Positions 14,881 to 30,846 of a stretch of 44,960 bases of DNA are shown here, piece after piece. The stretch lies in the IMG/VR virus record IMGVR_UViG_3300031728_000001. One strand, written 5' to 3'. Below the pieces are notes generated by a model, which ran no database searches, had not been told where the DNA came from, and saw only the letters and a program-made list of their open reading frames with translations. Within the stretch, counting starts at the first letter, position 1. Each line of letters starts with the position of its first letter. Made by a program: the position numbers and the translations under genes. The DNA comes from a virus.

Positions 14881-14898
14881 TAAGTTTGGTTTTAATTT

Positions 14899-14980
14899 TA
14901 CGCAAAAAGGTCAATAAAGTACGCAATTTTTTCTATTTGAAATCATTGGGTTTTTTAGGGTACGCAATTTTTTCACGCAA
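14899..14980. repeat. four iteron-like copies of TACGCAA (two with AAAAG, two with TTTTTTC) in the largest intergenic region
   Basis: TACGCAA at 14899, 14920 and 14961; CACGCAA at 14974. Arrangement is A-B...B-A. Confidence 0.7.
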
Positions 14981-15082
14981 AAAGTATCCATTCTGTCATA
15001 AAAAACTAATGATTTTGTGCTCATAAATTTGGCATGAAGAATGCAACATATTGTTGGCAGTTGCTGATGAAAGGATGATAAG

Positions 15083-15298
15083 ATGACCATAGCTAAACAA
15101 AAAGAATCTATTCGATTTAATACCGTGATTCGGTTTCGCCGTGGAAAGAGCGGGTCAGGTAGGGACCTTGTCGGTGCTAATGGTCGTGTGTCGTGCTTGG
15201 ATACGGACCCCCATTATGCGTGGGTATATGTCGACGGGTGGGTGCCTGTGGAGCGTGTACCCGTAACGTGGTTTAAGATTATTCGTCAATGGGGATAG
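15083..15298 (+). CDS. small hypothetical protein with GC-rich (noticeably above genome background) foreign-type codon usage
   Basis: SD aaggatga. Uses CGA/CGG/CGC/GCG/CCC codons, which are rare elsewhere in the window. Confidence 0.5.
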   Translation: MTIAKQKESIRFNTVIRFRRGKSGSGRDLVGANGRVSCLDTDPHYAWVYVDGWVPVERVPVTWFKIIRQWG

Positions 15299-15314
15299 TA
15301 GAAGGAGTAAGAAA

Positions 15315-15941
15315 ATGGAAAAGTTATATAAATATCCTAGAACATTTCATTTTCCTTGGTCCGAGACAGTTGCTTCAGATGATAAGGTGTTGACTGATAT
15401 ATCATGTTTTGTTGGGTCTGAAATTGTTGTTACTGAGAAAATGGACGGTGAGAATTGTACCATGTATAGAGATTATATCCATGCAAGAAGTGTTGATGGA
15501 TTGAGTCATCCTAGCAGAGCATGGGTAAAAAATATGTGGTCTGATATTAGATACGATATACCGGTTGGGTGGAGGGTCTGTGGGGAAAATTTATATGCGA
15601 AACATTCTGTAAATTATAAGGATTTGAAGTCATATTTTTATGGTTTTTCAATATGGAATGAGAATGTTTGCTTATCTTGGGATGAAACTATTGAATGGTT
15701 TGAACTTTTAGGGATTGTTCATGTTCCAGTTTTATATAGGGGTAAGTTTGATGTTGATATTTTGAAAAATTTATCAATTAATAAAGATAAACAAGAGGGA
15801 TATGTTGTTAGACATGCTTGTTCATTTCGATACGATGAATTCAAGAATAGGGTAGCTAAATTTGTAAGGGCGAATCATGTAAAAACGGATGAACATTGGA
15901 TGCATAGTAAGGTTGAGAAGAATTTATTGATGGAGGGTTGA
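15315..15941 (+). CDS. ATP-dependent RNA ligase (Rnl-family nucleotidyltransferase)
   Basis: N-terminus KYPRTFHFPWSETV.DDKVL typical of RNA ligase family proteins. Motif I VVTEKMDGEN (KxDGxN). Confidence 0.55.
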   Translation: MEKLYKYPRTFHFPWSETVASDDKVLTDISCFVGSEIVVTEKMDGENCTMYRDYIHARSVDGLSHPSRAWVKNMWSDIRYDIPVGWRVCGENLYAKHSVNYKDLKSYFYGFSIWNENVCLSWDETIEWFELLGIVHVPVLYRGKFDVDILKNLSINKDKQEGYVVRHACSFRYDEFKNRVAKFVRANHVKTDEHWMHSKVEKNLLMEG

Positions 15942-18302: not shown

Positions 18303-18938
18303 ATGAATAATATTCAAGAAAATGATTTGGTAAAGAAATATATTGATATAGCAAAGGGTGTTGCAAGGTCATATTCGACGGTTACGCCAGACCATATTTC
18401 ATTTGATGATTTGTTTTCGGCTGGATTGATGGGTATTTTAAATTCTATTAGATCTGAAAAAACAAGATGTGTTAAGGCAAGAGTGGTTTGGGCAATCAAG
18501 GAAGAACTGAGAAGATGTGATTTTATAGATAAACAAAAACGAAAAAAGATCAATGATATTGAAATAGCTAAAGATAAATTATTTGTTAAATTGGGTAGAT
18601 ATCCTAAAGATATCGAAATTGCAGAAGAAGTTGGAATGAGTTTTGATGAATACAATAAATTTATACTTATGCATCAGGATTATAGATTATATGATGAGTT
18701 AGAAGATGTAGTTGTTGAAGATGAGGCTTTTTATGATGGTATTTTTGCTCGAGAAATTATTGAACGTGCTAATTTAAGCGAGCGAGAATTGGATCTTTTG
18801 AAGTTGTTTTATATTGATGGATATACATTAGTAGAAGTTGGAAAACAAATAGGTGTAAAAGAAGCAAGAGCATGCCAGATAAGACAGAGTATTTTGAAAA
18901 AGATTAGTAAGGCCACATCTGTTGATGAAGTAGCTTGA
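18303..18938 (+). CDS. sigma-70 family RNA polymerase sigma factor (sigma-28/SigF-like group)
   Basis: Region 2 DLFSAGLMGILNSIRS. Region 4 HTH LSERELDLLKLFYIDGYTLVEVGKQIGVKEARACQIRQSILKKI. Confidence 0.7.
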   Translation: MNNIQENDLVKKYIDIAKGVARSYSTVTPDHISFDDLFSAGLMGILNSIRSEKTRCVKARVVWAIKEELRRCDFIDKQKRKKINDIEIAKDKLFVKLGRYPKDIEIAEEVGMSFDEYNKFILMHQDYRLYDELEDVVVEDEAFYDGIFAREIIERANLSERELDLLKLFYIDGYTLVEVGKQIGVKEARACQIRQSILKKISKATSVDEVA

Positions 18939-23491: not shown

Positions 23492-23514
23492 TAAAATATA
23501 AAAAGAGAGTTGAG

Positions 23515-23739
23515 ATGTTAGATAAAATACGAAAAAGTGATTTAAAAAAAGGTATGTGGGTTGCTTATATTGCTAATCAAGTAAATTATGGTGGGGAAAT
23601 AGAAGTTGGAAGAGTTAAAAGTTGGAATGATAAGTTTGTTTTTGTAGTATATAAATGTGCTGAAAATTGGGATCGGTATGAAGATTATACTGGAGTTGCT
23701 ACAAAAATAGAGGATTTAGTTATATATGATGGGGATTGA
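23515..23739 (+). CDS. hypothetical protein
   Basis: ORF. Confidence 0.5.
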   Translation: MLDKIRKSDLKKGMWVAYIANQVNYGGEIEVGRVKSWNDKFVFVVYKCAENWDRYEDYTGVATKIEDLVIYDGD

Positions 23740-23740
23740 T

Positions 23741-24055
23741 ATGATAATTGTAGCACCCAATTTACCAGATAAATATCATTTAGAATATGTAAAAAAAGAA
23801 ATGAAGAAACTTGGTGTACCTAAAATTAGAGCCATATGGTCAAAAACACATAATATATGGTTTGCAGCAGAAGGGTCACATCGTATTGCAGCAGCACATA
23901 AGGCTGGAATAGTTCCTATTATAATTGATATTACTGGAGAAGATGCAATTGTTCAGAAGAATGAAGAGGATACCCAAATGACTGCTAGAGAGTTAGAAGA
24001 TTGGTTGATTTCTGATCCTACTGCACCCAGATATGTTTTTGATGAAAATAATTGA
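23741..24055 (+). CDS. ParB/sulfiredoxin-like N-terminal domain protein
   Basis: IWFAAEGSHRIAAAHKAGIVPIIID resembles the ParB nuclease-domain core. Confidence 0.4.
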   Translation: MIIVAPNLPDKYHLEYVKKEMKKLGVPKIRAIWSKTHNIWFAAEGSHRIAAAHKAGIVPIIIDITGEDAIVQKNEEDTQMTARELEDWLISDPTAPRYVFDENN

Positions 24056-24256
24056 ATGGTAATTCGTAATAAAAAATGGAAATATATAGACCCATCTGGT
24101 GAATATGAAAAGACAGAATTAGAGATTTTAGCAGAATATTTTGAATGTTGGTCTGCTGAGATGAGAAAGAATGGAAGAGAGGACATTATTTCTGAAAAAA
24201 GATGTATAGATGATTGGGTTGCTATAAATTGTGCGTGGGAAGTGAAAGATGAATAA
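24056..24256 (+). CDS. hypothetical protein
   Basis: ORF. Confidence 0.45.
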   Translation: MVIRNKKWKYIDPSGEYEKTELEILAEYFECWSAEMRKNGREDIISEKRCIDDWVAINCAWEVKDE

Positions 24257-24521
24257 AAGAAAAGAAGAATTTTTTGAATCGGTACCTAAATGGGCTGATT
24301 TGTATGAGGTATCTCATGATACGGTTAAGATGAGAAGTTGTGCTGGTCCTTTTTCATCATTAACTAATTCTCATATGATATTGGGTCCACGGTGTTCGGG
24401 GCATGTACTTCAGAACGTTCAATTAACGAGATGTATCCTTGGGTTGTTTTCGCTCGGTCTGCTAGTTGTTTCTGGGTCCAGCGACGAGCAATTCGCGCAC
24501 TTCGAATCTGGAGGCCTGTAA
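24249..24521 (+). CDS. questionable ORF: AT-rich plausible N-terminus running on into a GC-rich foreign island (possibly disrupted gene)
   Basis: Composition switches at about 24375. Overlaps the antisense HTH gene. Confidence 0.2.
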   Translation: MNKRKEEFFESVPKWADLYEVSHDTVKMRSCAGPFSSLTNSHMILGPRCSGHVLQNVQLTRCILGLFSLGLLVVSGSSDEQFAHFESGGL

Positions 24522-24528
24522 TCCTCAT
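24364..24528 (-). CDS. XRE/Cro-C1-type HTH transcriptional regulator (only minus-strand gene; foreign codon usage)
   Basis: IRSARIARRWTQKQLADRAKTTQGYISLIERSEV matches the classic Cro/C1 HTH pattern. ATG at complement 24528 (the track ORF extends to a TTG at 24567). No clear SD. Confidence 0.5.
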   Translation of the reverse strand: MRITGLQIRSARIARRWTQKQLADRAKTTQGYISLIERSEVHAPNTVDPISYEN

Positions 24529-24715
24529 TAGTGTATATTTAGCTATTTCAAACACTATGGTCAACAAATATTAATAAATATTACGTAATATGTGAGCGTA
24601 TCAAGCAACCGCCCTACCAGACACCGAGGAGGTCCAATTTGTACCTTTAGATGTAAAAAATGTATGTCGATATATGATGAATGTGATGTAATAGGAGATA
24701 TAAAGTGTCCAAGTT

Positions 24716-24997
24716 GTGGATATGGAGGATAGTTTGAACGTTAAGGAGGCTAAGAAGGCAAAGAACAAGTGGAAGAAATCTGCACCATCTATGGGGGAGG
24801 ATGAAGCTAATGATATATTGTTGTCTTCTATGAAGTGGTTATCAAGACATGTTGATGGAGATGTTAAGGAAAGCAGAGAGCTTGGTGAGATGCTTCGTGA
24901 TAAAGGTATATGGTATATGTTTATTGAAGGAGATGAACAGAGGCCAATATTTAAGACTAGAAGAGGAAAATTTAGAAGAATGGAATGGCCTAATTAA
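24716..24997 (+). CDS. hypothetical protein
   Basis: ORF. Confidence 0.45.
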   Translation: MDMEDSLNVKEAKKAKNKWKKSAPSMGEDEANDILLSSMKWLSRHVDGDVKESRELGEMLRDKGIWYMFIEGDEQRPIFKTRRGKFRRMEWPN

Positions 24998-25007
24998 GAG
25001 GAATAAG

Positions 25008-25256
25008 ATGAATAAGATAGATTGGCCTACTGGAAGAAAGATGCATGTTCAGATTGTTGGTCTTGCACTACCTAATGGACGTCAAGTTCATTCTGAATTG
25101 GTGGAAGAGGCTTACAAAGAATATTGTCAGATGTTCGGAAATAGTCAAACGTTAGAAAGATTACAAGAGAGGGGTGGATTTGATATAGTTGAATTGGCTA
25201 CTTTTTTGTATATGAGGATAAAGCGGTTAGAGAAGAATATTGTAGAAAAAAGTTGA
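25008..25256 (+). CDS. hypothetical protein
   Basis: SD aagagga before ATG 25008 (internal start of ORF 24849-25256, avoids the overlap). Confidence 0.5.
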   Translation: MNKIDWPTGRKMHVQIVGLALPNGRQVHSELVEEAYKEYCQMFGNSQTLERLQERGGFDIVELATFLYMRIKRLEKNIVEKS

Positions 25257-30138: not shown

Positions 30139-30846
30139 ATGAAAATTGTAGAACCATCAGTTGAAGTTATATTTTGGGCTCCTGAAGATAGTGGAACATT
30201 AGAGGAAGGAATTGAGAAAGCAGCAAGAACTTGTTACAAAAGTGAAGGGAAAATTGGTGAAGGAACAGCGGATAAACTGATTAGGAAACTCAGAAAAAGT
30301 GGTCACCATGCTATGCTTGAGTTTGGTTATATAATGGCAAGGATTATTGCGGACCGAGGTTTGAGTCATGAGTTGGTAAGGCATAGATTGGCATCTTTTG
30401 CACAGGAATCGACACGATGGTGCAATTACAATTATGAAAGATTTGATTCTGAAATTTCTGTAATAGAACCTCCAGGATTGACAGAGGAACAGAGAGTCAT
30501 ATGGTCTGTAGCAATGGCTGATGCTGAAAGACATTATATGACTTTGATAAAAATTGGTGCTAAGCCACAAATAGCTAGGTCGATTCTTCCGATAGGGTTA
30601 AAGACTGAGATTGTTATTGGGGCAAATCCAAGGGAATGGAGGCATATTTTCAAGATGAGGTGTGATAAGCATGCTCACCCTATAATTAGAAGTATAATGA
30701 TAGAGATTTTGTTGCAGTGTCGTAATAAATATCCTGCTATTTTTGATGACCTTTTTGATGATTTGCATGATGAACTTATAAATAAATGGTCGGAATTAAA
30801 AGATAAAACTATGAGGGAAGCGATAATGAAATATGTCGTTGACTAA
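30139..30846 (+). CDS. thyX: flavin-dependent thymidylate synthase ThyX
   Basis: ThyX signature RHRLASFAQESTRW (RHRxxSxxxxSxR). HHAMLEFG. Size 235 aa. Confidence 0.8.
   Translation: MKIVEPSVEVIFWAPEDSGTLEEGIEKAARTCYKSEGKIGEGTADKLIRKLRKSGHHAMLEFGYIMARIIADRGLSHELVRHRLASFAQESTRWCNYNYERFDSEISVIEPPGLTEEQRVIWSVAMADAERHYMTLIKIGAKPQIARSILPIGLKTEIVIGANPREWRHIFKMRCDKHAHPIIRSIMIEILLQCRNKYPAIFDDLFDDLHDELINKWSELKDKTMREAIMKYVVD

Follow-up and report, generated by a model that had tools for sequence, protein, structure and literature searches.

The stretch of virus DNA that we analysed, 44,960 nt long and referred to here as the window, carries a strain-specific insert of 244 nt of foreign DNA (24390-24633, assigned to neither strand). 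The insert splits a small zinc-ribbon gene in two and bears, on the minus strand, the 5' fragment of an XRE/Cro-C1 helix-turn-helix (HTH) regulator gene. It was probably acquired in a recent, strain-specific event in which illegitimate recombination captured a random fragment of a regulatory locus, leaving a truncated HTH pseudogene and a split gene, and most likely serving no function. This kind of event is already known; the instance described here is new.

A 244-nt insert in a zinc-ribbon gene

The edges of the insert were set by reading-frame deletion together with the comparison of relatives. Exact-protein look-ups were run for a neighbouring gene of 109 aa and for the intact 79-aa gene. 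The first gave ten short contigs from metagenomes, all of this phage group, and the second four more, including pieces of a 170-kb and a 31-kb contig; 13 of the fetched contigs span the insertion site. None of these 13 metagenomic relatives has the insert. Each runs from 24389/24390 directly into 24634, with flanks 95-99% identical to the window on both sides, and all of them (13/13) keep an uninterrupted plus-strand gene for a 79-aa zinc-ribbon protein. The same 79-aa ORF is restored exactly when the 244 nt are deleted in silico; the insert thus lies between codons 47 and 48, between two proline codons. The boundary is ambiguous by 1 nt (one C), 24391-24634 being equally possible. The initial annotation of this DNA had described an island, bounded at 24364 or 24375 and at 24640, that was inserted into a plus-strand gene. 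The island and its insertion are upheld by the intact relatives and by the restored ORF, but its limits have to be moved to 24390-24633. Comparison with related phages, a check proposed at that time and now run, identifies the island as an indel: the relatives have the intact plus-strand gene, and no similar HTH was seen in any of the fetched relative loci. The annotation had counted such a pattern against its own proposal; this was mis-specified, as the pattern supports insertion. We infer that the direction of the change was a gain by the window, and not a precise loss by its relatives. Two junction-adjacent nucleotides (24383 G and 24636 A) were considered as footprints of donor microhomology or as a compensatory pair and were rejected because both positions are polymorphic among the relatives, with A, C or G at one of them and CCC in eight versus CCA in five at the other.

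The two halves of the zinc-ribbon gene are readily recognised on the plus strand. The N-terminal 47 codons occupy 24249-24389, and the C-terminal 32 codons with the stop (24634-24732), identified from the relatives, contain the CxxC...CxxC zinc ribbon and are cut off from their start codon. Joining 24249-24389 to 24634-24732 gives MNKRKEEFF...LGPPICTFRCKKC...CPSCGYGG followed by the stop. This joined product matches protein cluster P0041, that of the intact gene, with 23 members on contigs of up to 172,915 bp, and the Pfam zinc-ribbon matches of the C-terminal half are weak (E 0.03-0.1). As 244 is not a multiple of 3, the plus-strand gene is frameshifted. What is read instead is a fused 90-aa ORF (24249-24521, plus strand) made of 47 native residues and 43 residues from the antisense of the HTH fragment. 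The earlier description of this ORF as a disrupted gene that continues into the island is now demonstrated against the relatives. A database protein identical to the fused ORF, P0042, has one member, on one 165,799-bp contig. The insert-bearing allele is recorded on that single contig only, from which the window presumably derives. The zinc-ribbon gene is evidently dispensable.

An allele recorded on one contig only, and whose donor was not found, could come from an assembly or library chimera, in which case the 244 nt would occur in no real phage genome. We regard such an artefact as highly improbable. The flanks resume at the exactly adjacent base with nothing lost or duplicated, no more than 8 nt are shared at the junctions, much less than the k-mer sizes of assemblers, and two independent joins returning to the same position would be very unlikely.

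Foreign composition and a truncated HTH gene

The insert differs from its surroundings by three measures. With a GC content of 0.443, where the window as a whole has 0.334, it ranks among the top 1.4% of 244-nt windows. The value of 0.443 is made up of the HTH-coding part (24390-24528, 0.504), an AT-rich middle of 63 nt (24529-24591, 0.206) and a right end of 42 nt (24592-24633, 0.595). Higher GC than that of the insert is found elsewhere in the window, at 1891-2180 and 15031-15375, which reach 0.48-0.49. The second measure is GC skew. The plus strand has an extreme excess of G over C across the window (mean skew +0.43, sd 0.14, in 200-nt windows), and the skew becomes negative only at 24426-24675, that is in 3 of 1791 windows over the whole 44,960 nt. 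This sole negative-skew region supports the presence of the only minus-strand coding segment, in agreement with the initial annotation, which had regarded the HTH gene as the only gene on that strand. Third, the 46 codons encoded by the insert have a codon score of -1.77, compared with -0.82 +/- 0.15 for 208 phage ORF chunks of the same size; not one of the 208 scores as low, and the distance amounts to 6.5 SD. The GC content at third codon positions is 0.43 for these codons and 0.22 for phage ORFs. The sliding-window and codon-usage checks thus bear out the GC jump and the foreign codons reported earlier, as GC, GC skew and codon usage each deviate. In none of the three is there any drift toward the values of the phage, consistent with a recent event.

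The other strongly GC-rich patch (about 0.48-0.49 in 244-nt windows) contains a 71-aa plus-strand ORF (15083-15298) preceded by a Shine-Dalgarno sequence, which may be another compositionally foreign gene. In the intergenic stretch upstream of this ORF (14895-14990), the motifs ACGCAAAAAG and GTACGCAATTTTTTC are repeated and may be promoter or regulatory repeats.

The coding part of the insert (24390-24528, minus strand) corresponds to codons 1-46, plus one nucleotide, of an XRE/Cro-C1 HTH gene. The minus-strand ORF spans 24364-24528 when read from an ATG, or 24364-24567 from a TTG. A Cro/C1-type HTH had been proposed here from the letters alone, and the Pfam profile confirms it: HTH_3 (PF01381) matches with 29.1 bits (cut-off 23) and E 1e-6, and PHROG repressor and regulator families match the ORF as well. 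The HTH_3 match covers only positions 1-33 of the 55 in the profile, and the five-helix domain is incomplete. The peptide encoded by the insert, MRITGLQIRSARIARRWTQKQLADRAKTTQGYISLIERSEVHAPNT, comprises helices 1-3 and continues into the turn that precedes helix 4; its residues 4-40 match helices 1-3, recognition helix included, and the fragment aligns to residues 7-45 of the 71 of 434 Cro. The homologues and 434 Cro continue into helices 4-5, whereas the homology of the insert ends at the start of helix 4, which is also the edge of the insert. Searching 1.84 billion representatives with HMMER gave 40 matches at E<=1e-3, of which all those inspected were HTH proteins, and the best identity to any database protein was 63-64% over 38 residues. 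The motif is placed at residues 2-6 in the closest database proteins, and the alignment with cyanobacterial plasmid regulators takes in the query from its residue 1; both observations support the ATG at 24528 as the native start.

What follows the fragment in the apparent ORF belongs to the phage. The edge of the insert falls within codon 47, and the tail (24364-24389, minus strand) consists of two bases of this Val-47 codon, then DPISYEN and a stop, all antisense to the phage gene. The last seven residues and the stop are therefore encoded by the flank, and the tail bases 24364-24389 are present in every relative lacking the insert. The D-P-I-S of the tail resembles helix-4 residues of the homologues, a likeness by which a 54-aa product with four helices may be possible. 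AlphaFold2, run on the 54-aa product as a single sequence without an alignment, returned one long helix and no HTH fold (pLDDT 71), an uninformative result. Direct reading of the sequence revealed no Shine-Dalgarno element before either the ATG at 24528 or the TTG at 24567, as the initial annotation had remarked for the HTH ORF. That annotation had gone on to suggest a gene in decay, and this part does not hold: as read from its sequence, the HTH 'gene' is a 5' fragment, cut at the insert boundary as the insertion took place, and not a complete gene in slow decay.

Upstream of the HTH start lies an AT-rich stretch (24529-24591, GC 0.21, no strand assigned) that would have been the upstream or intergenic region of the donor locus. 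It contains, 50 nt upstream of the HTH start, the perfect 14-bp palindrome ATATTACGTAATAT (24578-24591, no strand), noticed earlier and exact, which is the presumptive operator of that locus. Perfect 14-nt palindromes number 17 in the window, where block shuffles give 4.1 +/- 2.0, so that ATATTACGTAATAT taken alone is only mildly unusual; the others include those at 2508, 10874, 14650, 17525, 18942, 22499, 22584, 23478 and 25403. A sigma-70-like promoter match, TTGATA-16-AATATT (24577-24604, minus strand), faces the HTH fragment and overlaps the palindrome; it is a consensus match only, and sigma-70-like matches are no more numerous in the region than in shuffles. The GC-rich right end (24592-24633, plus strand, GC 0.60) finishes in GAGGAGGT and would represent either the 5' UTR and Shine-Dalgarno sequence of a divergent donor gene or the first 14 codons of this gene, starting from GTG 24592. 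It is in frame with the zinc-ribbon half, by chance.

Compared with XRE/Cro-C1 regulators such as 434 Cro, the insert shares helices 1-3 and an upstream palindrome placed as in an autoregulated repressor gene, whereas it has about 60% of the domain, with helices 4-5 missing, and is known here from its sequence alone. One could imagine that such a unit works as a regulatory moron with its own promoter, whose 54-aa mini-HTH would bind the palindrome or a related host or prophage operator, for instance as a dominant-negative protein or a decoy, the loss of the zinc-ribbon gene being tolerated. The genuine HTH_3 match does cover the DNA-reading helices 2-3, the promoter-like site overlaps a perfect palindrome directly upstream, and the ORF stays open for 54-67 codons with a flank-encoded tail loosely like helix 4. 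We nevertheless judge this function unlikely. The domain breaks off at position 33 of the 55 in the profile, and helices 4-5 are present in every homologue; the end of the ORF is owed solely to the antisense flank; there is no Shine-Dalgarno sequence, and no terminator-like site in 23900-25100; no further copy of ATATTACGTAATAT occurs in the 45-kb window with up to two mismatches, so that no other operator copy is at hand there; a single contig has the insert-bearing allele, whereas the cluster of the intact gene counts 23 member sequences; and the single-sequence AlphaFold model, which is weak evidence, lacks the HTH fold. In the sense of Hendrix and colleagues, a phage moron is a promoter-gene-terminator unit located between phage genes. 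The insert shares with morons a foreign composition, an orientation opposite to that of its neighbours and a promoter-like sequence of its own, but it differs from them in that it is not intergenic and contains neither a complete gene nor a terminator. The acquired regulatory moron of the initial annotation is therefore not one in the usual sense of the word, as the element lies inside a gene and has no terminator and no complete ORF.

Ends of the insert, mobility and RNA processing

The ends of the insert have features of their own. A 10-nt inverted repeat, 90% complementary, has its left arm at 24386-24395, straddling the left junction, and its right arm at 24621-24630; it is not flush with the insert, starting 4 nt outside the left end and stopping 3 nt inside the right end. 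A long-range helix between 24380-24402 and 24612-24638 reaches -27.3 kcal/mol, against -16.6 +/- 3.5 in shuffles (P ~0.006 with the flanks included), and the pairing of the ends of the insert only has a P of 0.06. In addition, three copies of GGTCCA (24384, 24475 and 24631) lie within 253 nt, one at each junction and one inside. The end pairing and the recurrence of GGTCCA are unexplained by a simple random capture.

These features, together with the cleanness of the insertion, would suit a small non-autonomous mobile element, either MITE-like or of the IS200/IS605 type without duplication, that entered at GGTCCA and kept the HTH as a relic of its parent element. The near-terminal inverted repeat, ends that pair more strongly than shuffles and a GGTCCA on both sides, if a 3-nt target difference is allowed, all speak for it. 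On balance, however, we find such an element very unlikely. The test for a target-site duplication was negative: a duplication of GGTCCA requires a target with one proline codon, 13/13 relatives have two, and an additional 3-nt deletion would have to be assumed. The inverted repeat is not flush, and the insert-only ends reach only P 0.06. The insert occurs once in the window, two exact patterns of 30-31 nt taken from it gave no match in IMG/VR, and blastn revealed no DNA similarity in phage or plasmid collections. Moreover, the HTH fragment reads outward through the end, whereas the transposase remnant of a MITE would read inward from the terminal repeat. The mobile-element remnant that had been envisaged at first finds no support in clean terminal repeats or, within the collections searched, in repeat copies.

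Alternatively, the insert could be an intervening sequence that is removed or skipped in expression, as a self-splicing or processed intron or through long-range bypassing between CCA codons, so that the zinc-ribbon protein would still be made. Precise removal restores the ORF, identical CCA codons stand on both sides with a GGAGG just 5' of the downstream one, the upstream CCA is followed by CGG, a rare codon (1.8 per 1000 codons), and the helix clamps the two insert ends. We hold this to be extremely unlikely for several reasons. Rfam gave no match, Intron_gpI included, at the gathering threshold over the whole window; at E<=10 over 24250-24750 there was again nothing inside the insert and two chance snoRNA-like matches in the flank only. 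The absence of a match to an Rfam family is the outcome of a check that the initial annotation had asked for. ARAGORN found neither tRNA nor tmRNA, and RNA folding of both strands was ordinary (z-scores of only -0.6 and -0.8). In a group I intron, U is the last exon base and G the last intron base. The junctions of the insert read ...CCA/CGG...GGT/CCA or, shifted by 1 nt, ...CAC/GGT...GTC/CAA, that is A/C...T/C or C/G...C/C, and not the U/...G/ of group I. Small group I introns without an ORF, of roughly 250 nt, occur in orf142 of Staphylococcus phage Twort; the insert resembles them in its size, in its position inside a phage protein gene and in the frame restored by precise removal, but differs in having no Intron_gpI match, the wrong splice-site nucleotides, an ordinary fold and a coding antisense strand. 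A frame-keeping GT...AG intron at 24392-24620 was also considered and rejected, the dinucleotides being attributed to chance and the bacteriophage encoding a sigma-70-type factor.

As for bypassing, the gene 60 of T4 has matched take-off and landing codons, a stop after the take-off codon, a gap of about 50 nt and a Shine-Dalgarno-like element before the landing site. The insert shares with it the CCA/CCA pair and the GGAGG, but it has CGG in place of the stop and a gap of 244 nt. The match between the CCA codons is a trivial consequence of the original Pro-Pro, and the bona fide protein-coding fragment on the minus strand explains the sequence with no RNA role. One might finally speculate that the 244-nt unit is not inert, being skipped or removed by bypassing or by an unrecognised processing guided by the end-clamping helix, or that it is a new small mobile cassette made of an operator and a truncated repressor decoy; we give hardly any credence to this idea.

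Phage context and origin of the fragment

The window is a run of plus-strand genes, all on one strand, with a flavour of replication and nucleotide metabolism: it encodes a DnaB-like helicase, a primase/helicase, a UvsX-like recombinase, a CCA-adding enzyme, a thymidylate synthase and a thymidylate kinase. The phage group, represented only by metagenomic contigs, has a genome of about 166-173 kb with about 33% GC. The region is highly mosaic among relatives whose aligned parts are 91-99% identical, and downstream there are several blocks of kb scale that differ. In T4-type phages, hyperplastic regions show gene-level indels between close relatives (PMC2839356, PMC4122927), and the region described here likewise has presence/absence differences, small genes of unknown function and many indels. 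The phage resembles T4 in genome size, GC content and the UvsX-like recombinase. PeSL-mediated events in T4-type phages act at promoter/stem-loop motifs, where entire ORFs are exchanged between genes (PMC2839356, PMC4122927). The insert differs from such cassettes in that it is intragenic, consists of a gene fragment only, has a foreign composition and is flanked by no PeSL-like motif.

Other differences between members of the group were observed in passing. A second indel (23514-23717) is a 204-nt cassette with a 74-aa AT-rich gene (ORF 23515-23739), which sits exactly between an upstream Shine-Dalgarno sequence and the start codon of the next gene. It is present in the window and in contig L027, most of it is found in contig L025, and it is absent from L001, L003, L004 and L006-L010. 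In L025 (12070-13655, compared with 30371-30379 of the window), about 1.05 kb of extra sequence lies inside the ThyX-type thymidylate synthase gene; the product matches LAGLIDADG_3 and Thy1, and the window gene (30139-30846) is without the extra segment. This difference is the presence or absence of an intein or homing endonuclease. L027 (GCA_037386685.1, JARRLV010000007.1) is a 10.4-kb contig of the phage group placed in a metagenome-assembled genome labelled Candidatus Lokiarchaeota. The relatives encode a sigma-70 region 3/4 protein, corresponding to 18303-18938 of the window, which identifies the element as a bacteriophage despite the Lokiarchaeota bin; L027 is probably a mis-binned bacteriophage contig.

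In the search for a donor, a word-indexed search of 5.8 billion protein clusters with the 67-aa ORF gave no candidate, and exact-protein look-ups of the 90-aa, 67-aa, 54-aa, 46-aa and 66-aa ORFs of the window and of P0042 returned no record. A peptide-pattern scan of viral contigs found only HTH genes 39-57% identical, from unrelated bacteria; the scans of metagenome and genome contigs had, among the matches listed, HTH genes of the same 39-57% identity, again from unrelated bacteria. With tblastn, phage and plasmid collections yielded only cyanobacterial plasmid regulators that were 40-52% identical. A close relative of the fragment was thus not found in the collections searched (among the matches listed, for the metagenome and genome scans). 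Judged by amino-acid composition and not by taxonomy, the best HMMER homologues appear to come from GC-rich bacteria. The GC content is 35% in T4 and about 51% in the host that it infects. By the same measure, a fragment of about 50% GC in a phage of 33% GC would be compatible with an origin in the host or in a prophage.

We therefore return to the capture of a foreign fragment, for which we propose the following scenario. The donor would be a source of about 50% GC, the bacterial host, a prophage and a plasmid all being candidates. A random fragment of 244 bp would have been taken from it by illegitimate recombination, of a short-homology or end-joining type, into the small zinc-ribbon gene, which in this phage of roughly 166 kb lies within a mosaic, 'hyperplastic' stretch. 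The many gene-level indels around the site and the UvsX-like recombinase of the phage speak for this reading. This fragment would span the control region of a divergent gene pair, with 46 codons of a repressor, a 63-nt promoter/operator region carrying the palindrome, and the leader or start of the neighbouring gene; that it is a random piece of a larger locus is something we infer from the truncation alone, no donor having been found. The capture would have had two effects: the zinc-ribbon gene was frameshifted and truncated, and a truncated HTH pseudogene was created whose frame ends by chance in the phage flank. The insert is most likely inert, or at most would add an antisense promoter.

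The insert calls for caution in annotation, since a 54-67-aa 'Cro/C1 regulator' and a 90-aa fused ORF would both be called genes here, and neither is native or complete. With a single event, breakpoints resolved to the base and 13 empty-site relatives, it offers a clean, datable example of the uptake of foreign DNA by large lytic-type phages. If the donor locus is ever sequenced, this fragment of about 50% GC could serve as a marker for the host of an uncultured phage group or for a co-resident element.
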